From NCBI GenBank assembly GCA_963975985.1, contig CAXBIY010000001.1, positions 179,020-243,019 on the forward strand: a DNA stretch of 64,000 nucleotides. The letters are read 5' to 3'. Each line of letters opens with the position of its first letter. Within the stretch, counting starts at the first letter, position 1. Source of the stretch: an uncultured Gammaproteobacteria bacterium. GTDB taxonomy: Bacteria; Pseudomonadota; Gammaproteobacteria; JABDGN01. The notes beneath the pieces are model-generated. The model worked only from the letters and a program-made list of their open reading frames with translations, made no database searches and was not told the origin of the DNA. Below, one piece after another: positions 16,792-51,648 of the stretch. The translations under genes and the position numbers were made by a program.

Positions 16792-18027
16792 CTATTTAAG
16801 CTTAGATAAGCGATGAGCAGTTTGTAAAACCTCTGCTTGTGCAATAACGGCATCCGCCATATTGATGGGTAGTGGTATCGGTAGCGTTTTTAATGAAGCA
16901 TATAAGCTTTTAACTCTATCAAAATCGCCTTGCTTATGTAAGTCAAAGGCGATTGTTTCTGCTTTTTTAATTTGTTCATTGGTTGCTGGCAGTAACAAGT
17001 ATGTAAAGAGAATGTAACAAGCATCAACCCATGCTGATTCTCGTTCTTTTTTAGAAAAAATTCTTTTATAGGTTGAATAAATATTTTCAACATTCTGAAT
17101 GCAAATATCAGCAACGCTTTGCCAGCCCTTGTCCTTGATGAGCAGTAATTGCATGGGTGAGCAGACAAAGTAGGCGAAAATATAATGCTCGATGACACGT
17201 TGGTAACGCTTGGTTGATTTTTCAGTATTTAACAAACCGTAATGATGGTTTGCAATTAAAATTAACATACGCGCATCACCTGAATCTTCCATGTTATTCA
17301 AATAAGTGGTTTTCATTGCTGGCGTCGTACTAGGGTCAATAAACTGGGTATAGAAATAATCAGGATAGGAATATTTAATAGCTAGTGCGGCATCGTCGGT
17401 GGTTATGTCTAGTGCGTCTGGGAATGTTTTGTTTTTGAGTGATTTATAGTATTTCGCGAAACGATTATAGGAGAATTTAGCCCCTGGAAAATCTAACTGA
17501 CTTGCCATATGAATGCTTTCTAACGCTTCATTGATTGCGTTTTTTAATGTTCTTGTATCTCGACGGCTATTTTGATCAAATTGCAACAAAAACAAGCCTA
17601 AATAATAACAAGCAGCTTTGTGGCCTGTTTTAGCCACTGAGAATAATGTGTTGTGTAATTCAGCGGGTTTAAATAATTCCGCTACGTACATGGTTGTCAT
17701 CGCGTGAAGAAAGATTAGTTCATTACGTGTCGCTACCGTATGTTCGTGCGTGCTACTGTCCGTCGTTTGGAAATGTGTTGAGTGAACATTGGTTTTTTCC
17801 AAGCAGCTTTTTAGAAAGCCTTCGGGGTAGCGAAAATTTAGTGCGGCAATAAAAGCAAACAATTTTGTATAGTAAACTTTAGTCGCATCTATTCTTGGCA
17901 CGTGTGATGAAGTGGGTGAGGCCGGTCTTGCCCGTGCTTGTTGTCGTAAAGTTGAATAATCGGGTGAGGCAAAATGGGTGTTTTCCATAGTGCTGCTAGT
18001 TGCGCTACTTGCAGCGGGCATATGCAT
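16792..18027 (-). CDS. Sel1-like/TPR-like eukaryotic-like protein, C-terminal 411 codons of an interrupted paralog of 18277-19791
   Basis: KTGHKAACYYLGLFLL motif; collinear with residues ~100-504 of the neighbouring paralog. Confidence 0.55.
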   Translation of the reverse strand: MHMPAASSATSSTMENTHFASPDYSTLRQQARARPASPTSSHVPRIDATKVYYTKLFAFIAALNFRYPEGFLKSCLEKTNVHSTHFQTTDSSTHEHTVATRNELIFLHAMTTMYVAELFKPAELHNTLFSVAKTGHKAACYYLGLFLLQFDQNSRRDTRTLKNAINEALESIHMASQLDFPGAKFSYNRFAKYYKSLKNKTFPDALDITTDDAALAIKYSYPDYFYTQFIDPSTTPAMKTTYLNNMEDSGDARMLILIANHHYGLLNTEKSTKRYQRVIEHYIFAYFVCSPMQLLLIKDKGWQSVADICIQNVENIYSTYKRIFSKKERESAWVDACYILFTYLLLPATNEQIKKAETIAFDLHKQGDFDRVKSLYASLKTLPIPLPINMADAVIAQAEVLQTAHRLSKLK

Positions 18028-18276: not shown

Positions 18277-19791
18277 CTAACAGCCTGATGAACCATCTCC
18301 TTTTAACGCATTAATGACTTGGTTAGCTTCTGCTGGCAGTGATAAGTTTAAACTATGTAGCACATTGTAATACATCGTAATAACATCTTTGTGTGGCTTC
18401 ATCTGTTTAAGATTTGGCTCCAGTCCACTGAGAATGAATTGTTTTATTGGTTTGATAAAATAGTCAAATGCTATAAAACGCATGCTAACCTCTTCATTTT
18501 TTTTATAAGGATTTTTGTCTACAAAAAGCTTCATATTATTGATACAAACATCCATAACCTTACGCCATTGATATTTACCAGCATTAATTATTGGGATAGT
18601 GAATTGTGCTGATATCATGAGATAGATATAGATAATGTAGTCAATAGCATTAATATATTCCTCTTTTGTTAAAGGCAGTATCTTGGGGGGGGATTTTAAT
18701 TTATTAGCCGTTATCTGTGCCATGAGTAGTAGTCCACGTATATCTTGGTTCGTCGAGCATAGTCTCGATAATGCATTAACTCTTGACTGGTCTATTTCAG
18801 GATAAACAAGTTTGGCTACAAAATAGTCAGGACTCTGACACGCTACTGCATTGGCAACGTCTTTATCGCTGAGCTTATGAGCGTTGAATGCCTCTATCGA
18901 TTGATATTGAGGATAAAATTTAAGAAAACGGATTAATGTAGCTTTAGCACCGGGTACATTTTTATCGATGGCTTGATTGAAATCATCAAATGCTTGTTGG
19001 GCATTAAGGTCTTTAAGTGCCCCACTCCTTCGCGTAAAGCGACTAAGTGAAGCTATACCGGGATTAGAATTCGCGGCATATTGGAGTTGTTCCAATGTTA
19101 ATAAACCTAAATAGTAAGAGGCTGCTGGGTGTCCTGCTTTGGCTATTGTTTCAAGTGAGCCTAGAGCTGTAGACATTGAATCAGCTGCTGCCATGCGCGC
19201 ACGGGTTAGCGCAAATAAAAATTCTTTTTCACGAGCAATAGCTTCAGTTTCTTGAATAAGTTGTCCATCAATAATGTGTGGTGTTGCCTCTGTGTCATCA
19301 ACACACGCGTTAAGGAATGCATCTGAATAATGTACTTGCAGTGCTGTAACAAATCCAAATAAATGTTGGTAGTATTCTATAGTTTCAGTATTAATCGTGA
19401 GAGGTGAGCTGCTTAATGCATCTGAACTAGCAGGAGCTTGACGGCGCAATAATGAGTTTCCGGGAATGCGACCACGTGCAACACGACCAGGAGCAGTAGC
19501 TTGTCGTTGAAGATTTTCAAGAGTCATTTGCCCCATTGCTTTAGCTAAATCAGTAGATGTAGCGGTGGTTTGCGGCGGGTCTATTTCTTCTAGTGGTGGC
19601 GGTGGTGTTAAGGGGCGAGAAGGTGGTTTAACTTCATAGCCGCTAAACGAAGGTGCCCGTGCTACCATTGAGCTTATAGAGCTTTGGCGTTTTACCGGTT
19701 GACTTGTTGGCTCGGCTTTATGGCGTATCTCAAGGATTTTGAATACGCAAGCTCTATAGTTGTCCGTACTCGGGAAGTGTTTTACTAGCAT
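18277..19791 (-). CDS. Sel1-like/TPR-like protein with proline-rich linker, intact paralog; effector-like, function unknown
   Basis: 504 aa; PPSRPLTPPPPLEEIDPP linker; AKAGHPAASYYLGLL Sel1-like motif. Confidence 0.55.
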   Translation of the reverse strand: MLVKHFPSTDNYRACVFKILEIRHKAEPTSQPVKRQSSISSMVARAPSFSGYEVKPPSRPLTPPPPLEEIDPPQTTATSTDLAKAMGQMTLENLQRQATAPGRVARGRIPGNSLLRRQAPASSDALSSSPLTINTETIEYYQHLFGFVTALQVHYSDAFLNACVDDTEATPHIIDGQLIQETEAIAREKEFLFALTRARMAAADSMSTALGSLETIAKAGHPAASYYLGLLTLEQLQYAANSNPGIASLSRFTRRSGALKDLNAQQAFDDFNQAIDKNVPGAKATLIRFLKFYPQYQSIEAFNAHKLSDKDVANAVACQSPDYFVAKLVYPEIDQSRVNALSRLCSTNQDIRGLLLMAQITANKLKSPPKILPLTKEEYINAIDYIIYIYLMISAQFTIPIINAGKYQWRKVMDVCINNMKLFVDKNPYKKNEEVSMRFIAFDYFIKPIKQFILSGLEPNLKQMKPHKDVITMYYNVLHSLNLSLPAEANQVINALKGDGSSGC

Positions 19792-28569: not shown

Positions 28570-28640
28570 AGGGTTTAGGTTTTAGGGCTTAGGGCTTAGT
28601 AGGATTGAGGATTGTGGGCTGAGGGTTGAGAAATATCCTT
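28570..28640. repeat. Degenerate heptamer tandem repeats (TTAGGGC / TTGAGGA units)
   Basis: GGTTTAGGTTTTAGGGCTTAGGGCTTAGTAGGATTGAGGATTGTGGGCTGAGGGTTGAG. Confidence 0.6.
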
Positions 28641-35031: not shown

Positions 35032-35153
35032 ATAATTCCCCTGTAGGGTGGATAAAAGTGTGAGCGACAGCGAATACATATCCACCAGGGCTCTATGGTT
35101 AACCACTGCTGGTGGATATATCCGCACTTCGTGCGAATTTTTATCCACCCTAC
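35005..35153. repeat. Composite: family-3 hairpin (CTTCTCCCCGCGAGGGG) followed by a full family-2 MITE (35043-35153)
   Basis: Same arrangement as at 44858-44992. Confidence 0.75.
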
Positions 35154-43726: not shown

Positions 43727-44857
43727 ATGCCTATAGAAAAGTTATTTACTTCAGAATCGGTCTCAGAAGGCCATCCTGACAAAATCGCCGATCAGATTTC
43801 TGATGCGGTGCTGGATGCTATTTTAGCGAAAGATCCCAGTGCGCGTGTCGCCTGTGAGACCTTCGTTAAAACCGGCATGGTCTTAGTTGGCGGTGAAATC
43901 ACCACCAATGCGTGGGCCGATGTCGAAGATGTTGCCCGCCAAACCATCAAAGACATCGGTTATACGCACTCAGATTTAGGTTTTGACTACGAATCATGCT
44001 CCGTCGTCTCAGCGATTGGCAAACAATCAGCTGATATTGCCAGAGGCGTGGACGGTAAAGACCAAGGCGCCGGAGACCAAGGCTTAATGTTTGGTTACGC
44101 CTGTAATGAAACCGAAGTACTCATGCCCGCACCAATCACCTATGCGCACCGCTTAATGCAACGCCAAGCCTTATTACGCAAAAACGGTGCGTTGCCATGG
44201 TTGCGTCCCGATGCCAAAAGCCAAATCACCTTTCGTTATATCGATGGCAAGCCTGTTGGTATTGATACCGTGGTGTTATCGACACAACACAGTGAAGACA
44301 TTTCGCAAGCCGATTTAATCGAAGCCGTGCGTGAAGAAATTATTAAACCGGTGTTACCCGAACACTATATCGATGACAAAACCCGTTTCATGATCAATCC
44401 AACCGGACGTTTCGTCGTAGGCGGCCCATTAGGCGATTGTGGTTTAACCGGCCGTAAAATCATTGTCGATACGTACGGTGGCATGGCGCGCCACGGTGGT
44501 GGTTGTTTTTCCGGTAAAGATGCCACTAAAGTCGATCGTTCTGCGGCCTATGCCGCACGATACGTTGCAAAAAACATTGTTGCCGCAGGCCTTGCTGACA
44601 AATGTGAGCTACAGCTTTCCTACGCGATTGGCGTCGCTGAACCGACATCAATTAGCATTGAAACTTTTGGTACGGGTAAGTTATCAGAAGATGAAATCAT
44701 AAAAGTGGTACGTGAAAATTTTGACTTACGACCACGCGGCATTATCGATATGCTAGATTTAAATCGCCCGATTTATAAATCTACCGCTAGCTACGGCCAC
44801 TTCGGCCGTGAAGAAGAAAACTTCACCTGGGAAAAAATCATAAAACTAAAAATTTAA
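43727..44857 (+). CDS. metK: S-adenosylmethionine synthetase
   Basis: [21 protein letters not shown] and GGGAFSGKD-like motifs, 376 aa. Confidence 0.95.
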
Positions 44858-44992
44858 CCCCTTCTCCCTTGGTGGGTGAGATTGTAGGGTGGATAAAAAT
44901 TCGCGCGGAGCGCGGATATATCCACCAGCGGTGGTAAATGATAGAGCTCTGGTGGATATGTATTTGCTGTCGCTCACACTCATCCACCCTAC
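44858..44992. repeat. Composite: family-3 hairpin followed by a full family-2 MITE (44884-44992)
   Basis: CCCCTTCTCCCTTGGTGGGTGAG then GTAGGGTGGATAAAAATTCGCGCGGAGCGCGGATATATCCACC...CATCCACCCTAC. Confidence 0.75.
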
Positions 44993-45099
44993 AGGGGAAT
45001 GACTCAACAATGCCCCCGGCGGGGAGACAGCCAAAAGGGCGGATCAAAAACATCCGCGAAGCGACAAACTGAATAACCTAAACAAACGAGAAACCCAAC

Positions 45100-46392
45100 A
45101 TGACCACAACAGACTACAAAATCGCCGACATCACACTAGCCGACTTCGGTCGCAAAGAAATCGCCATCGCCGAATCCGAAATGCCCGGCTTAATGGCGCT
45201 TCGCGAACGTCACGCCACCGAGCAACCCTTAAAAAACGCAAGAATCGCCGGTTGCTTACATATGACCATCCAAACCGCCGTGTTAATTGAAACTTTAACC
45301 GCATTAGGTGCTGAAGTCCGTTGGTCATCATGTAATATATTCTCCACGCAAGATCATGCAGCCGCTGCCATTGCCGCTAGTGGTGTGCCCGTGTTCGCAT
45401 GGAAAGGCGAAACAGAAGAAGAATACCAATGGTGCATCGAACAAACGATTCATGGTGTGAATGGTTGGACGCCGAATATGATTTTAGATGACGGTGGTGA
45501 TTTAACCGTATTGATTCATGAAAAATATCCTGAACTCTTTAATGACATTCGCGGCATCACAGAAGAAACCACAACCGGCGTGCATCGCTTGTATCACATG
45601 GCCGATAAAAATGAATTATTAGCCCCAGCCATGAACGTGAATGATTCTGTTACCAAATCGAAGTTCGATAATTTATACGGTATTCGTGAATCTGTCATGG
45701 ATGGCTTGAAACGCGCAACCGATGTCATGGTCGCCGGTAAAACCGCAGTTATTTTAGGTTATGGTGATGTTGGTAAAGGTGCTGCGCAAGCATTCCGTGG
45801 TCTAGGCGCTAATATTTGCGTCACTGAAATCGATCCTATTTGTGCATTACAAGCGGCAATGGAAGGCTATCGTGTCATGACTATGGAAGAAGCCGCTAGC
45901 CAAGGCGATATTTTTGTCACCACAACCGGCAACAAAGATGTGATCACGCATGACCATATGGCCGCCATGAAAGACCAAGCTATTGTTTTGAATGTCGGAC
46001 ATTTTGATAATGAAATCGATGTCGCCTCACTGCGCCAATACGAGTGGGAAAATATCAAACCACAAGTCGATCACATTATATTCCCTGATGGTAAACGTAT
46101 TACCTTATTAGCCGAAGGACGTTTAGCCAACCTAGGCTGTGCGACCGGTCATCCTAGTTTTGTGATGTCCAACTCATTCACCAACCAAGTCATCGCACAA
46201 ATAGAATTATGGTTACACGCCGAAAATTATGAAAACCAAGTGTACATGCTACCGAAAAAATTGGATGAAGACGTTGCAAGATTACACCTAGATAAACTCG
46301 GTGTGAAATTAACTACGCTTAGCCAATCACAAGCGGACTACCTAAGCATTCCCAAAGAAGGGCCCTACAAACCCGATTATTATCGATATTGA
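45100..46392 (+). CDS. ahcY: Adenosylhomocysteinase
   Basis: NAD-binding GYGDVGKG motif, 430 aa. Confidence 0.95.
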
Positions 46393-46512
46393 GGATTAGG
46401 ATTGAGGATTGAGGATTTAGAGGGCGTTGAGTCGCTTCGCGATTTTTAATATTAAATTAATCATCACGTAGCGATTCTTTAGTCCCTCAATCCTCAATCC
46501 TCAATCCTCAAA
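46393..46512. repeat. Inverted arrays of the TTGAGGA heptamer (GAGGATTGAGGATTGAGGA ... TCCTCAATCCTCAATCCTC) around a ~55-bp core
   Basis: 19-bp perfect inverted repeat; could form a long hairpin between ahcY and rsmE. Confidence 0.8.
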
Positions 46513-46516
46513 TATT

Positions 46517-47245
46517 ATGCGACAATCCAGAATCTACCACCCACACCCCCTCACGCCCAACACCAGCATCGTCTTAACCGACAGTGCCGCAAACTATCTC
46601 GCCAACGTGCTACGTCTAAAACCCGGTGCCGAACTCATTCTTTTCAACGGCCAAGGCGGTGAGTACAGCGCCGAAGTTACCAGCGTTAACAAACGCAAAG
46701 TCGAAGTCACTCTCCATCAATACATTGAAAAAAACATCGAGTCGCCTTTAGCATTACATCTAGGCCAAGGTATCTCTCGCGGTGAGCGCATGGATATCGT
46801 CATCCAAAAAGCCACAGAACTTGGTGTCACCGAAATCACACCTCTCATTACCGAACGTTGTAACGTCAAACTCACCGAGGAGCGTTGGCAAAAACGCTGG
46901 CTACATTGGCAAGGCATCGCCATTAGCGCCTGTGAGCAATGCGGCCGTACCGTTCTGCCCGTTATTCACCAACCCATGCCATTATCCGATTGGTTAGCAC
47001 AAGCCGACCAGCCCCCCGGTATCGTGCTGGACCATAGGGCTCAAGCCACATTAAAAGACATCAAGCTCGAAAGTTCAGCCTTACGCCTGTTAATCGGCCC
47101 AGAAGGTGGTTTAACCGAAGCTGAAATAACAATCGCTACCCAACAGGCCTTCAACACGGTAAAATTAGGCCCACGCGTTCTGCGCACAGAAACCGCCGCC
47201 ATCACAGCACTCAGCCTGCTACAGTATGGCTGGGGTGATATTTAG
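46517..47245 (+). CDS. rsmE: 16S rRNA m3U1498 methyltransferase RsmE
   Basis: PUA-like N-terminal domain, SPOUT C-terminal motif LIGPEGG, 242 aa. Confidence 0.85.
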   Translation: MRQSRIYHPHPLTPNTSIVLTDSAANYLANVLRLKPGAELILFNGQGGEYSAEVTSVNKRKVEVTLHQYIEKNIESPLALHLGQGISRGERMDIVIQKATELGVTEITPLITERCNVKLTEERWQKRWLHWQGIAISACEQCGRTVLPVIHQPMPLSDWLAQADQPPGIVLDHRAQATLKDIKLESSALRLLIGPEGGLTEAEITIATQQAFNTVKLGPRVLRTETAAITALSLLQYGWGDI

Positions 47246-47253
47246 GGAAGAGT

Positions 47254-48543
47254 ATGTTGCAAAAATTGTATCAAGCATTAGCTATTCGAACGAGAAATTC
47301 TAGCAATCAAATTATACCGTTAGGTGTGATTGGGTTTTTTGGCTTTCCTGTTTATTATATCATTTGGCATTTTTGGTTTCCTCAGGCGTATGAAAGTTTA
47401 CCTTTGCGGTTATTCGGTAGCTTTATTTGTTTATTACTAGTTTTTAAAAATCAATGGCCCTCTTCTCTGAAAAAAGCATTACCGGTTTATTGGTACTTTG
47501 TATTGCTGTATAGCTTACCATTCTTCTTTACTTATCTTTTGTTGAAAAATCATTTCTCTGATGTGTGGATAATGTCAGAAATGGCGGCACTTTTCATGTT
47601 GATATTATTAGTCGATTGGTTGAGCTTAACGCTAATGACGACGATAGGTGCTGTTGTGGCCTTTGCTATTTTCTTTGTGCAACAAGACTCATTGGTTATA
47701 CCTAGAGATGGTGGCGCTTATTTGTTTGTGTTCTTATTCGTGGTGGTTGTCGGAGCTGCATTGACCCGGCAGAAAGAAAGTGCTGAGAAGCAGAAGCTAG
47801 AAGGCATGGCGGCGGTTACTAGTAATGTTGCTCATGAAGTCAGAACGCCATTGCTTGGTATTAAAAGTGGCACGGCAGGTTTGAAGAATTATATCCCATT
47901 GTTGTATGAAGGATATCTAGCTGCTAAAGATCATGGTTTACCTGTGCCGGTGATTCGAACTTCACATTTTAATGATATTTTACCTGCTATCGATCGCATT
48001 CAAAAAGAAGTGGACTATGCCAACACCATTATTGATGTGTTGCTGCTGAATATTAAACGCGAGCCTGAAAAATTAAAACATTTTAAAGTGTGTTCGATGC
48101 GTCATTGTATTGATGAGACAATGGGGCGTTATCCTTTCACCTCTACGGAAAGTGTTGAGTTGATTCACTGGGATAAGCATGATGACTTTGAGTTTTATGG
48201 CTCAGATGTGCTGCTTATTCATGTGTTATTTAATCTGATTAAAAACGCATTGTACTATATTGCGGAAGTTAACAAGGGATATATCGAATTATGGTATAGC
48301 GAGGAAACGCGGTATAATGTATTGCATTTCAAAGACACAAGTAAAGGGATATCAGTTCAAGACTTACCTTTATTATTCGAGCGTTTTTTCACAACCAGCA
48401 AGGTTGGTACCGGTATTGGGTTATCCTTCTGTCGGAAAGTGGTGGAAAGTTTTGGTGGCAAAATCACTTGTCAATCAGTGTTTGGTGAGTACACGGAATT
48501 TCTCATTCACTTGCCTAAAGTAGACGGCGACAAACGGAGTTAA
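47254..48543 (+). CDS. lqsS: Six-TM sensor histidine kinase of the CqsS/LqsS type (no receiver domain)
   Basis: Six N-terminal TM helices, H-box NVAHEVRTPL, G-box GTGIGLSFC; 429 aa; adjacent to lqsR and lqsA homologs. Confidence 0.65.
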   Translation: MLQKLYQALAIRTRNSSNQIIPLGVIGFFGFPVYYIIWHFWFPQAYESLPLRLFGSFICLLLVFKNQWPSSLKKALPVYWYFVLLYSLPFFFTYLLLKNHFSDVWIMSEMAALFMLILLVDWLSLTLMTTIGAVVAFAIFFVQQDSLVIPRDGGAYLFVFLFVVVVGAALTRQKESAEKQKLEGMAAVTSNVAHEVRTPLLGIKSGTAGLKNYIPLLYEGYLAAKDHGLPVPVIRTSHFNDILPAIDRIQKEVDYANTIIDVLLLNIKREPEKLKHFKVCSMRHCIDETMGRYPFTSTESVELIHWDKHDDFEFYGSDVLLIHVLFNLIKNALYYIAEVNKGYIELWYSEETRYNVLHFKDTSKGISVQDLPLLFERFFTTSKVGTGIGLSFCRKVVESFGGKITCQSVFGEYTEFLIHLPKVDGDKRS

Positions 48544-48544
48544 T

Positions 48545-49567
48545 ATGCAATTAAAGAACCTACCTATTTATTATTATCCCACACGTATATTTATGGTGGA
48601 TGATAACCGCGATTTCCTTATGAATTTTAGCCTGCAATTGGATCCCAGCTTAGCTTACTGCATGTTTTCTTCAGCACATGAAGCGTTGCGACAATTAAAA
48701 CAAATTAAGAATGATGATTTGATCACAAAGAAGATACTTTCTCATTACGAAGGTGCCAGTGATGATCCATTATCGCAACAATCATTCACGCTGAATTTGA
48801 ACGCTATTCAGAATGAAGTGTATAACAAAAATCGCTTTAATGAAGTTGGTGTTGTGTTGGTTGATTATGATATGCCTGGTATTAACGGTGTTGAATTTTG
48901 CCAACAAATAAAGAATATCCCGGTGAAGAAAATCATGTTGACGGGAAAAGCCGATGAGAAACTTGCGATTGATGCCTTTAATAAGGGGCTTATCGATGCT
49001 TTTGTTCAAAAGCAATCAAGTGATATTATTACATCAATTAACGATAATATTGCTGCGCTACAATATGATTATTTTCAGAATGTCTCGAAGTTAATCACTA
49101 AATTACTTGCGATGGATAATACAACATTTATTAACGATACGGCTTTTATTGAATTCTTTGTTTGCCTGTGTAAGGAAAAAAAGATAGTTGAATATTATTT
49201 GATTGACATAACGGGAAGTTTCTTAATGTTAGATGCGGATGCCAAGCCATCATTTTTGACAGTGAAATTATATGATGATCTGGAGTTACATTATGAGCTT
49301 GCTCAAAATGCTAAAGCGGAAGAAGCCGTATTAGACGATATTCGTAGTGGTAATAAAATTCCTTTTGCGCTACAAACCAAAGATTACTATGGTTACGATG
49401 CTAGTGATTGGAAGAAAAATCTTTATCATGCTGAAGAGCTAAAAGGTGAAAATACCTATTATTATGCTTATATTACAGCGGATATTGGATATAACAATGA
49501 AGCACAGCCAATAGCGAGTTATCATCAATACTTAGAGAAGCTAGATAACGCGAACAGCGCAGATTAA
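48545..49567 (+). CDS. lqsR: Atypical response regulator of the LqsR type (receiver around D107/D109 plus an uncharacterised ~200-aa output domain)
   Basis: RIFMVDDN and VVLVDYDMPGINGVEF receiver motifs; no DNA-binding domain; 340 aa. Confidence 0.6.
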   Translation: MQLKNLPIYYYPTRIFMVDDNRDFLMNFSLQLDPSLAYCMFSSAHEALRQLKQIKNDDLITKKILSHYEGASDDPLSQQSFTLNLNAIQNEVYNKNRFNEVGVVLVDYDMPGINGVEFCQQIKNIPVKKIMLTGKADEKLAIDAFNKGLIDAFVQKQSSDIITSINDNIAALQYDYFQNVSKLITKLLAMDNTTFINDTAFIEFFVCLCKEKKIVEYYLIDITGSFLMLDADAKPSFLTVKLYDDLELHYELAQNAKAEEAVLDDIRSGNKIPFALQTKDYYGYDASDWKKNLYHAEELKGENTYYYAYITADIGYNNEAQPIASYHQYLEKLDNANSAD

Positions 49568-49568
49568 T

Positions 49569-50918
49569 TTAAATCGCTTGTTTAAGAATAGTGTCAGTTG
49601 TTCTCTGAGCGTGTGATCGTTTCTTACGTGGAAATGGAATGATATTATCAAACACAGGTTGTTTGTGTAAACGTTTTGTTGAATTCCAATTATCCATGCC
49701 GACTTGCTCGCGAATCACATCACAAATGACGGACATTCGCTCAAGAGCCGGTTTTGTCATGGCAGCATTCATGCAGAATCTAACGAGCGACCGTTTAACT
49801 GCTGTCGCTGGCGCGCAAAATACTGAACCCATTACACCCCGTGATTGCAAAGCATCACGTAGGATAATCGTGTTTTGCTCACTGCCGGCCTCTAAAGAAA
49901 TAATTTGTGACTGACTGTCGGTTACGTTATAACCTAAATTTAATAATTTCCCGCGTAAAAAATCAGCATTGTCATGCAAACATTGTCGCCTTTCATCTGC
50001 ACTTTGAATAACATTCAACGCTGCTTGATACCCTGCAACTTCATAGGGCAAAACAGCAGTACTAAAGATAGCCGGTAACGATTCAAAGATGAGGTATTCA
50101 CGGTTGCGAGCAGAGCAAGTAATAATACCTCCTCGAGAAGCAAATGCTTTTGCTAAACTGGCTGTTATAAAATGAACTTTATCGGTTAAGTTTAATTCAG
50201 CAACCAAGCCGGAACCATTGGGTCCGTGCGTGCCTAATGAATGTGATTCATCAACAACAAGTACGCATTCGTATTTTTCAGCAATAGTAGCAATAATAGC
50301 AAGCGGACAGAGGCTGCCATTGGTACTGTAAATTGAGTCAACAACAATAACACCAGGGCCGTGTTGTTTAATTTGACGTATTAAATGTTCTGCATCATTA
50401 TGTCGGAATCTAACCGCATCAGCATTAGCTGATTTAATCCCTTCCCATAATGACATATGTGCGATGGCATCGATATAAACCGGTGTGTGTTCATCAGCAA
50501 TGGATTGAATCAATCCAACATTGGCGACATAGCCTGATTGGCAAATTAAGGCATCTTCCATATTGAGATGTTGCGCCATAGCGAGTTCAAACTGACGATG
50601 AGGATTATCTTCGCCCTTAAGGAAAATGGCTGACATTAACAAATCATTAGATTGCTCTTTTATGGCATTAATTTTCGCGTCACTAATAACAGAGTGGTTG
50701 GCAATGGATAGATAATCATTATGATCCAAATTAATAGGGTAGGGATGGCTAGCATGCGCATGTTGCCCACGCATAATGTGACCACCGTGCCAATTTTGCG
50801 TCACCCGTTCTGAATAAAAATGTTGGACACGCTCGCGTAAAAACTTCGGCTCTCTAGGACCTTTATATTGGCTGTAATCCTTACACTGTTCCCATGATGA
50901 GGGGGGTACACAAACCAT
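49569..50918 (-). CDS. lqsA: CqsA/LqsA-family PLP-dependent alpha-oxoamine synthase (alpha-hydroxyketone autoinducer synthase)
   Basis: YIDAIAHMSLWEG, HGPGVIVVDSIYST, VDESHSLGTHGPNGSGL and TASLAKAF (PLP lysine) collinear with V. cholerae CqsA; start uncertain (M1 vs M49). Confidence 0.85.
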   Translation of the reverse strand: MVCVPPSSWEQCKDYSQYKGPREPKFLRERVQHFYSERVTQNWHGGHIMRGQHAHASHPYPINLDHNDYLSIANHSVISDAKINAIKEQSNDLLMSAIFLKGEDNPHRQFELAMAQHLNMEDALICQSGYVANVGLIQSIADEHTPVYIDAIAHMSLWEGIKSANADAVRFRHNDAEHLIRQIKQHGPGVIVVDSIYSTNGSLCPLAIIATIAEKYECVLVVDESHSLGTHGPNGSGLVAELNLTDKVHFITASLAKAFASRGGIITCSARNREYLIFESLPAIFSTAVLPYEVAGYQAALNVIQSADERRQCLHDNADFLRGKLLNLGYNVTDSQSQIISLEAGSEQNTIILRDALQSRGVMGSVFCAPATAVKRSLVRFCMNAAMTKPALERMSVICDVIREQVGMDNWNSTKRLHKQPVFDNIIPFPRKKRSHAQRTTDTILKQAI

Positions 50919-51648
50919 TTTGTTGTATGTCCTTAGCCAGTTAATTTTATTGTGATTGTGTTGATGAAGTTGAATGTAGATATTAGCTTAGACCAAGAAT
51001 ACGGAAGCGCAAGCCTATTGAATGTTCGGTGGTTTGTTTGGTTATTTTGTGAGTAACCAAGGTTAAAAAAGAAGCATTAGAAATGCAGTTTATAGTTTGA
51101 TGCTTGTGATAACTGCGTTAAATTGAAATGTTTGTAGTGGACAAAGAAAAGGGACGAAAACTCGTCCCTCAAAGGGCTCAAAAAAACTAGACATAATGAA
51201 TGGTTGATAACGTTGACGGTCCTTGTCGGTGTCGTGTTCGTCCTTGAACAGTGTTTTCAGCATTCACATGGATGAGGGCGCATCATGTGTCTAATCTCAG
51301 TTCTCATAATAAACAATTTTGAGAGCGAAACAATAACCGTGAGAGATACGGTGATACAAAATTTGATCAACACGTTGCCCATAAGTTGCTCCAATTGTTT
51401 TAAATCAATCAGTTATAAATATAATGTGATGTCGCTTTAGGCTAAGTCCCGTTAACTATTTGATTTTATCGCTAGCGGCTTTGCGATATGGCTTACAAGC
51501 GAGAACTCAATAGGTTCTATTTATGGCCAATATTTGATTGAATTTCGCTCATCGCATCTGAAAAAGCCATGTCTTAAGCCGCTTGTAGCTTGCATAAGCC
51601 CGTCATAATCGTTAGTCTTAGATCAACTCAAAAAATTAATGAATTCAT

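Follow-up and report, generated by a model that had tools for sequence, protein, structure and literature searches.

A predicted Legionella-type (Lqs) quorum-sensing gene set behind metK-ahcY-rsmE in an uncultured marine gammaproteobacterium

Described alpha-hydroxyketone systems and the new locus

Three kinds of described system are closest to the locus examined here: the lqs cluster of Legionella pneumophila (lqsA-lqsR-hdeD-lqsS; signal LAI-1), the compact lqsS-lqsR-lqsA clusters without hdeD that occur in Nitrococcus mobilis, Paraburkholderia, Paludibacterium, Sulfuricellaceae and other environmental proteobacteria, and the CqsA/CqsS pair of Vibrio cholerae (signal CAI-1). In the environmental clusters lqsS and lqsR overlap or abut and a convergent lqsA lies a few to tens of nucleotides downstream. 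CqsS is a hybrid kinase that carries its own receiver and feeds LuxU and LuxO, and to our knowledge no LqsR exists in Vibrio.

The stretch of DNA analysed (64 kb, referred to as the window) comes from an uncultured marine gammaproteobacterium and contains a Legionella-type (Lqs) gene set for alpha-hydroxyketone quorum sensing that, judged from its genes, is complete and intact. The six ORFs listed in the original prediction were found with the same coordinates and strands (Table 1). We consider it highly probable (about 85 %) that the locus is a standard three-gene Lqs-type system and that the proximity of metK-ahcY-rsmE is an inherited chromosomal position, not a functional fusion; metK and ahcY are neighbours that lie outside the signalling module.

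Table 1. Features of the locus, with coordinates in the window
Feature	Coordinates	Strand	Basis
metK, methionine adenosyltransferase	43727..44857	+	TIGR01034 628 bits (cutoff 309); three Pfam S-AdoMet_synt domains
ahcY, adenosylhomocysteinase	45100..46392	+	TIGR00936 647 bits (cutoff 498)
Long hairpin with heptamer-repeat arms, ahcY-rsmE spacer	46389..46511	.	Folding energy
rsmE, 16S rRNA m3U1498 methyltransferase	46517..47245	+	NF008692 316 bits (cutoff 196)
lqsS, six-TM sensor histidine kinase, 429 aa	47254..48543	+	HisKA, HATPase_c, LqsS homology
lqsR, response regulator, 340 aa	48545..49567	+	PDB 6sy9 match
lqsA, predicted PLP-dependent alpha-hydroxyketone autoinducer synthase, 449 aa	49569..50918	-	NF005526, CqsA structures
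Non-coding spacer 5' of lqsA, 730 bp	50919..51648	.	Only short ORFs inside

All three window proteins have full-length homologues in the L. pneumophila cluster, which shares the orientation seen here (lqsS and lqsR codirectional, lqsA convergent with them), the lack of a receiver in the kinase, and both phospho-acceptor residues (His and Asp). The two clusters differ in that L. pneumophila has hdeD between lqsS and lqsR, in the distance between these genes (1 nt from the lqsS stop to the lqsR start in the window, ~870 nt in L. pneumophila), and in chromosomal site, which is 3' of rsmE in the window and between the cytochrome c5 gene and hemC in Legionella (PMC8023197). The compact arrangement of the environmental clusters is the same as that of the window, and the window synthase is nearer to non-Legionella enzymes, including those of these clusters (53–57 % identity), than to Legionella LqsA (42–46 %), though the host lineage and genomic neighbours differ and the C-terminus of the window synthase carries a lineage-specific tail of ~30 aa, of a kind also seen at another locus, L007. 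Relative to Vibrio cholerae, the synthase aligns over most of CqsA with all PLP-site motifs present, and the window kinase belongs, like CqsS, to the six-TM type family. However, the window kinase has no receiver and a separate LqsR is encoded; hence, the system is assigned to the Lqs and not the Cqs type.

The cluster is a further example of an already known system. With it, one more environmental lineage, which is marine, gammaproteobacterial and apparently deep-branching, joins the already long list of bacteria with a complete Lqs system, and the synthase can already be named correctly by standard annotation pipelines.

Synthase, kinase and regulator

Homology of the three proteins to known components and conservation of their catalytic residues were observed directly. 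Against NF005526, the NCBIfam equivalog for alpha-hydroxyketone autoinducer synthases, the synthase scored 559 bits (cutoff 428), with the sister models all under their cutoffs (bioF 253 bits, cutoff 426; Kbl 203 bits, cutoff 460; SPT likewise). In a PDB search the CqsA structures 3hqt and 2wk8 were matched with 353 bits (E 2e-104), and every BioF, Kbl and SPT structure trailed these by >200 bits, the best BioF/Kbl entry reaching 140 bits (E 8e-40). L. pneumophila LqsA is 45 % identical, and there are >4,000 clusters of homologues, many annotated at source as CAI-1 or alpha-hydroxyketone synthases. The four PLP-core motifs claimed earlier are present at residues 148, 186, 222 and 252; VDESHSLGTHGPNG and VVDSIYST recur in CqsA in identical or nearly identical form, and the PLP lysine, K257 within TASLAKAF, aligns with the lysine of TASLAKTF in CqsA. 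The N-terminal extension relative to CqsA is shorter than the ~20–60 aa proposed, since residues 21–400 align with CqsA residues 4–378 of 389, so that the window enzyme is longer by 17 residues N-terminally and by ~38 C-terminally.

A Kyte–Doolittle scan, which is a simple hydropathy method and not a dedicated topology predictor, placed six hydrophobic segments in the kinase (residues ~19–38, 45–64, 78–97, 104–122, 126–145 and 153–172), and a domain search gave no Response_reg match in the protein, which ends at residue 429. The earlier description of the kinase, six TM segments and no receiver, was thus borne out. The H-box histidine is H194, within SNVAHEVRTPL. When compared to L. pneumophila LqsS (that of subsp. 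fraseri, which is frameshift-split in that assembly), the membrane part shares 37 % identity over 171 ungapped residues (E 2e-24) and the kinase core 47 % (E 2e-73).

The regulator matches the crystal structure of L. pneumophila LqsR (6sy9) almost end to end (residues 2–335 on chain residues 22–355; E 4e-87), with identity to L. pneumophila LqsR of roughly 44–50 %, whereas other receivers in the structure search match only residues ~74–190 with E 2.5e-7 or weaker; it consists of a receiver and an LqsR-specific C-terminal domain. D107, in VVLVDYDMPG, corresponds in the alignment to residue 128 of the 6sy9 chain, which we take to be native Asp108, assuming a 20-residue tag offset. D19, D20, D107 and K156 do not vary among 24 homologues, in keeping with the phospho-Asp that had been placed near D107–D109.

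Because synthase, regulator and kinase each pass a direct homology test, the identification as Lqs holds, and with it the earlier proposal of an Lqs/Cqs-type alpha-hydroxyketone module. A BioF/Kbl-type alpha-oxoamine synthase lying beside an unrelated two-component pair, the outcome that the original prediction had itself named as fatal to it, would be compatible with the general fold, for which Pfam returns just Aminotran_1_2, and with the source label of one synthase homologue, glycine C-acetyltransferase. However, it did not emerge from the profile and structure searches, and the model scores, the structure matches and the LqsS and LqsR homologies make it almost certainly wrong.

In Legionella, phosphotransfer between His200 and Asp108, inhibition of the kinases LqsS and LqsT by LAI-1, and dimerisation of LqsR have been reported (PMC5289986). 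Extrapolating product, ligand response and output from Legionella and Vibrio, LqsA, a predicted PLP-dependent acyl-CoA transferase of the CqsA/LqsA family, would synthesise a diffusible signal, either an alpha-hydroxyketone or the amino precursor of that compound. LqsS would autophosphorylate on His194 and pass the phosphate to Asp107 of LqsR and, by analogy with L. pneumophila, binding of the signal to LqsS would inhibit the kinase reaction, while phospho-LqsR would dimerise and set the output. In the inferred transcript structure, lqsS and lqsR would be translationally coupled and probably carried on the rsmE transcript, and lqsA would be transcribed toward them from its own promoter, presumably located in the 730-bp spacer upstream of it. 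On its minus strand, that spacer includes a strong hairpin that resembles a terminator (51170–51149; 9-pair stem, T-rich tail).

Gene order and the lqsR/lqsA junction

The order of the genes had been described as non-canonical. This did not survive a survey of 80 LqsR loci from other species, in which gene order and its generality could be observed directly: lqsS is upstream of lqsR on the same strand in 63/63 loci, and lqsA is convergent just downstream of lqsR in 40 of the 42 synthase-carrying loci, L. pneumophila included. Hence, the window has the order that is standard among Lqs systems, lqsS-lqsR with lqsA convergent. No hdeD homologue was found anywhere in the 64-kb window, as had been claimed, and only 12 of the surveyed loci, all from Legionella, have hdeD adjoining lqsR. 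Apart from a few Legionella species, lqs clusters as a rule lack hdeD, and the gene does not define such a cluster. Comparative work has likewise found the order and orientation of the lqs genes conserved and hdeD to be an intruder (PMC8023197).

The lqsR stop codon (TAA, 49565–49567) and that of lqsA (the reverse complement, 49569–49571) are separated by one base, confirming the distance noted earlier, and a terminator scan found no terminator-like site at the junction, again as noted, though this was a simple consensus search that would miss other kinds of termination. Very short or negative gaps are common: in 14 of the 40 convergent lqsR/lqsA pairs, and also in L007, the stop-to-stop gap is ≤20 nt, overlaps included. 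The abutting genes could be a regulatory device in which transcription of lqsS-lqsR and of lqsA damp each other via antisense RNA or polymerase collision, and the recurrence of such gaps, the junction without a terminator-like site and the retention of the convergent orientation itself in 40/42 loci are consistent with this. However, the gaps have a median of 43 nt and reach 374 nt, therefore tight abutment is dispensable for the system, and the blindness of the consensus scan to other kinds of termination also counts against it; a regulatory role of this kind appears rather unlikely.

Position behind metK-ahcY-rsmE

Though it was proposed that the module is fused to the SAM-cycle genes, only part of this claim stands: metK-ahcY-rsmE do lie directly upstream, but a functional fusion is unsupported and the adjacency is limited to one lineage. 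Among the 80 loci, only five have metK, ahcY or rsmE ≤10 kb from lqsR; four metagenome relatives do so as well. The loci with methyl-cycle neighbours largely correspond to a single LqsR clade, most members of which have rsmE-lqsR without lqsS or lqsA, and synteny in this clade extends to unrelated genes on the flanks (outer-membrane barrels, an FNR-like reductase, an ABC transporter). Within Legionella, too, lqsS and lqsA have been reported to be lost piecemeal while lqsR is kept.

Were the adjacency functional, lqsS-lqsR or lqsR would be co-transcribed with the activated-methyl-cycle genes, and receptor level or signal synthesis would track SAM availability, since SAM can serve as a substrate of CqsA-type enzymes; SAM plus decanoyl-CoA is one substrate pair reported for CqsA (PMC3376566). 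The rsmE stop precedes the lqsS start by only 8 nt (TAG GGAAGAGT ATG), with the lqsS ribosome-binding site overlying the rsmE stop, and rsmE is followed on the same strand and at a short distance by lqsR or lqsS-lqsR not only in the window but also in nine further distinct loci (L003, L004, L007, L009, L015, L083, L084, L086 and L087). In relatives, metF is also in the block. All of this would fit such a link. However, among the 43 synthase-carrying loci from other species L007 alone has metK/ahcY ≤10 kb away, and no recurrence of a metK/ahcY-synthase linkage in independent lineages was found in the 80 LqsR loci, only L007 having both. Of the synthase relatives examined, the two closest (61 % and 58 % identity) are not encoded beside metK/ahcY, the linkage within this lineage is retained mainly by genomes that do not have the SAM-using synthase, and the unrelated flanking genes are equally syntenic. 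The metK-ahcY and ahcY-rsmE spacers (242 bp and 124 bp, respectively) contain a palindromic repeat element and a hairpin with a minimum free energy of -62.3 kcal/mol (z = -10.9 compared to shuffles); therefore, a single transcript from metK is disfavoured.

An adjacency that is confined to one lineage, and kept where the SAM-using synthase has been lost, gives no support to a functional fusion, which we regard as very improbable, and inheritance of a chromosomal position is the best reading of the proximity to the methyl-cycle genes. The 8-nt rsmE-lqsS junction and the retention of rsmE-lqsR throughout a deep lineage, in which ArgS identity between members is only 62–64 %, leave some scope for a regulatory tie to these genes. 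In that case, lqsR would have stably joined an activated-methyl-cycle operon, metK-ahcY-(metF)-rsmE-lqsR, which would couple transcription of the LqsR pathway to SAM metabolism, and the window would represent the full form with the SAM-consuming synthase still attached; we give this little credence. The lineage-wide placement of lqsR behind methyl-cycle genes is the only point likely to concern specialists, and it is most simply explained as inherited synteny.

The hairpin in the ahcY-rsmE spacer is likely to be a transcript boundary or a repeat element. A match to Rfam MIR8643 at this site scored far under the gathering score. A sequence related to the hairpin is present at position 28600 of the window.

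Identity of the synthase, regulator and kinase

The lqs genes in the window form an ordinary Lqs quorum-sensing cluster in the standard layout and add one member to a known type. The original prediction recognised the Lqs type correctly but described the layout as non-canonical, a description that does not stand (see below). An ORF scan reproduced its map of six genes exactly, and no second copy of lqsS, lqsR or lqsA was found in the window. The housekeeping assignments of metK, ahcY and rsmE, made from NCBIfam models, can be considered secure (see table).

Features of the window
Feature	Position	Strand	Length	Remarks
Ankyrin-repeat protein	6896-9370	+	824 aa	many repeats
ORFs with no Pfam match	16792-18027, 18277-19791, 57646-59151	-		large
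metK	43727-44857	+	376 aa	NCBIfam score above curated cutoff
ahcY	45100-46392	+	430 aa	NCBIfam score above curated cutoff
rsmE	46517-47245	+	242 aa	NCBIfam score above curated cutoff
lqsS	47254-48543	+	429 aa	histidine kinase; ORF scan
lqsR	48545-49567	+	340 aa	response regulator; ORF scan
lqsA	49569-50918	-	449 aa	aminotransferase-fold protein; ORF scan
Palindromic intergenic repeat, full copies	6399-6511, 35043-35153, 44884-44992		~110 bp
Palindromic intergenic repeat, half sites	20458, 40517, 54883
Hairpin in ahcY/rsmE spacer	46389-46511		~125 nt	related sequence at 28600-28617
Strong terminator-like hairpin	51149-51170	-		9-pair stem, T-rich tail; upstream of lqsA, inside the 730-bp spacer 50919-51648

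Grouping of the synthase with BioF/Kbl, which the original prediction had raised as the competing assignment, fails because the protein scored 559 bits against the NCBIfam equivalog NF005526 (cutoff 428), matched V. cholerae CqsA (3hqt, 2wk8) at 353 bits (E 2e-104) in a search of solved structures, and shares 45 % identity with L. pneumophila LqsA. The best BioF/Kbl-type structure reached 140 bits, and scores against the NCBIfam models for bioF, Kbl, serine palmitoyltransferase and ALA-synthase were well under every cutoff. The four synthase motifs reported earlier were found at residues 148, 186, 222 and 252. An N-terminal extension of 20-60 aa relative to CqsA had also been proposed; the alignment gives 17 aa, and the larger of the two extra segments is at the C-terminus, which continues for ~38 residues beyond CqsA. 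Alignments with several LqsA homologues begin at query residue 7, so part of the N-terminal stretch is common to them, and the C-terminal tail is conserved only in L007, one of the 80 LqsR loci surveyed below.

Residues 2-335 of the window LqsR align with the crystal structure of L. pneumophila LqsR (6sy9; E 4e-87), whereas ordinary receivers matched only the receiver part, with E 2.5e-7 or weaker. D107, within VVLVDYDMPG, corresponds in the alignment to the residue that accepts phosphate in L. pneumophila LqsR (presumably native Asp108), and D19, D20, D107 and K156 do not vary among 24 aligned homologues. LqsS has six hydrophobic segments within the first 172 residues, followed by HisKA and HATPase_c domains with the H-box histidine at position 194, and no receiver domain was found in it. 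Its membrane part shares 37 % identity with that of L. pneumophila LqsS over 171 residues without gaps, and the kinase core 47 %. It is the separate LqsR together with a kinase lacking a receiver that places the module, as judged from sequence, in the Lqs rather than the Vibrio Cqs type, a distinction drawn from these two features.

The sequence data establish homology, the catalytic residues and the linkage of the genes, and the product, the effect of the ligand and the output are predicted from homology with systems studied before. LqsA would condense an acyl-CoA and an amino-acid-type substrate on PLP (K257), giving an alpha-hydroxyketone signal; SAM and decanoyl-CoA are reported substrates of CqsA (PMC3376566). 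LqsS would autophosphorylate at H194, and the phosphate would be exchanged with D107 of LqsR.

Gene order in 80 LqsR loci

Homologues of the window proteins were located in 80 loci encoding LqsR relatives, taking one genome per species and including Legionella species, Nitrococcus, Paludibacterium, Paraburkholderia and many MAGs. Wherever lqsS was present, it preceded lqsR on the same strand (63 of 63 loci), and a synthase gene within 10 kb was convergent and directly downstream of lqsR in 40 of 42. The L. pneumophila locus itself reads lqsS (plus), hdeD (minus), lqsR (plus), lqsA (minus), and the order conventionally given as lqsA-lqsR-hdeD-lqsS is the identical layout read from the opposite end. 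Hence, both the survey and direct reading of the L. pneumophila locus contradict the claim of a non-canonical order. Conservation of lqs gene order and orientation was also reported for 58 Legionella genomes, together with independent gene losses that leave lqsR with or without lqsS (PMC8023197).

Two further supposed peculiarities are likewise ordinary. A single base does separate the lqsR stop codon (TAA, 49565-49567) from the reverse-strand lqsA stop codon (49569-49571), as had been noted, but gaps of 20 nt or less, overlaps included, occur in 14 of 40 loci (median stop-to-stop distance 43 nt); lqsS and lqsR are spaced by 30 nt or less in 25 of 63. The absence of hdeD is the rule, as this gene adjoins lqsR in only 12 loci, every one of them Legionella, and it has been found missing from most clusters in the Legionella survey and never seen in clusters outside that genus (PMC8023197).

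The assembly of L. pneumophila subsp. fraseri ATCC 33156 (L010, 7819-9127) has lqsS in two pieces, ORFs of 206 and 239 aa that overlap, because of a frameshift or of an error in sequencing.

SAM-cycle neighbours and spacer elements

Of the 80 loci, only five (L003, L004, L007, L009 and L015) have at least one of metK, ahcY and rsmE at 10 kb or less from lqsR. Four metagenome contigs carrying the closest LqsR relatives (47-54 % identical) likewise have these genes nearby, and in a neighbour-joining tree the LqsR proteins of the linked loci and the window fall largely in one clade. The constant feature of this group is rsmE then lqsR, most of its loci being without both lqsS and lqsA, and the full layout metK-ahcY-rsmE-lqsS-lqsR recurs only in L007, where the convergent synthase gene lies 2 nt past the lqsR stop codon. 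Synteny in these contigs extends to unrelated genes on the flanks, which encode two outer-membrane beta-barrel proteins, an FNR-like reductase and an ABC transporter carrying an AAA_assoc_C domain. No link to metK or ahcY exists for the two closest synthase homologues that were examined, which share 61 % and 58 % identity. Though the adjacency from which a fusion of the lqs module to the SAM-cycle block had been predicted does exist, a functional tie of the lqs cluster to SAM metabolism is possible but unlikely and no observation here requires it, and the simplest reading is that the cluster was inserted behind rsmE in an ancestor of the lineage, with differential loss of lqsS and lqsA thereafter.

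A single transcript running from metK to lqsR is unlikely because the intervening spacers hold a palindromic repeat and a stable hairpin. The metK/ahcY spacer (242 bp) is filled by one full copy of a MITE- or REP-like repeat whose termini, GTAGGGTGGAT...ATCCACCCTAC, have nine matches in the window where 0.4 are expected by chance. In the ahcY/rsmE spacer (124 bp), the hairpin has arms made of tandem heptamers, (GATTGAG)n on one side and (CTCAATC)n on the other, and a folding energy of -62.3 kcal/mol (z = -10.9). Further along, the rsmE-lqsS gap is 8 nt with the ribosome-binding site over the rsmE stop codon, the lqsS-lqsR gap is 1 nt, and both junctions look coupled.

No riboswitch or other known RNA was found by Rfam at the gathering threshold in the metK-ahcY, ahcY-rsmE or lqsA-upstream spacers. 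The sole match by E-value, of the plant microRNA precursor model MIR8643 to the long ahcY-rsmE hairpin, was rejected as spurious. The terminator-like hairpin upstream of lqsA suggests a small unannotated minus-strand transcript from about 51640 to 51150, a region with short ORFs only and no Rfam match.

Source lineage and variant loci

The window sequence matches Tara Oceans metagenome scaffolds exactly. The source lineage appears to be deep, as no match to its arginyl-tRNA synthetase (ArgS) exceeds 64 % identity. The matches with names, Marinobacterium and Oceanospirillaceae, share 59 %, and the ArgS matches do not establish membership of the Legionellales. A host-associated lifestyle is hinted at by the 824-aa ankyrin protein, whose repeats are a eukaryote-like trait and typical of bacteria that live with a host, and by three large ORFs in which Pfam found no match.

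MAG SZAS-82 has three LqsR homologues, each on its own contig (L015, L037 and L041). Just one of the three genes follows rsmE, and none of them has a detected LqsS or LqsA homologue next to it. Metagenome contig KRAE22-1 scaffold_1443 (L084) carries metK-ahcY-metF-rsmE-lqsR and, at the site of the window's MarC-family gene, a second module (2312-5464, minus strand) encoding an LqsR-like regulator (31 % identical), a full-length LqsS-like kinase (39 % identical) and a 234-aa Haem_oxygenas_2-family protein with no NCBIfam match. No LqsA-type synthase was found near this module, a possible Lqs-like variant in which a different enzyme makes the signal. The gene for the closest synthase homologue (61 % identical), in L088 (10001-16536), adjoins a PAAR-like toxin gene and faces three histidine-kinase genes (445, 654 and 442 aa) in convergent orientation, and LqsR is absent; this is the same synthase type with a different receptor complement.
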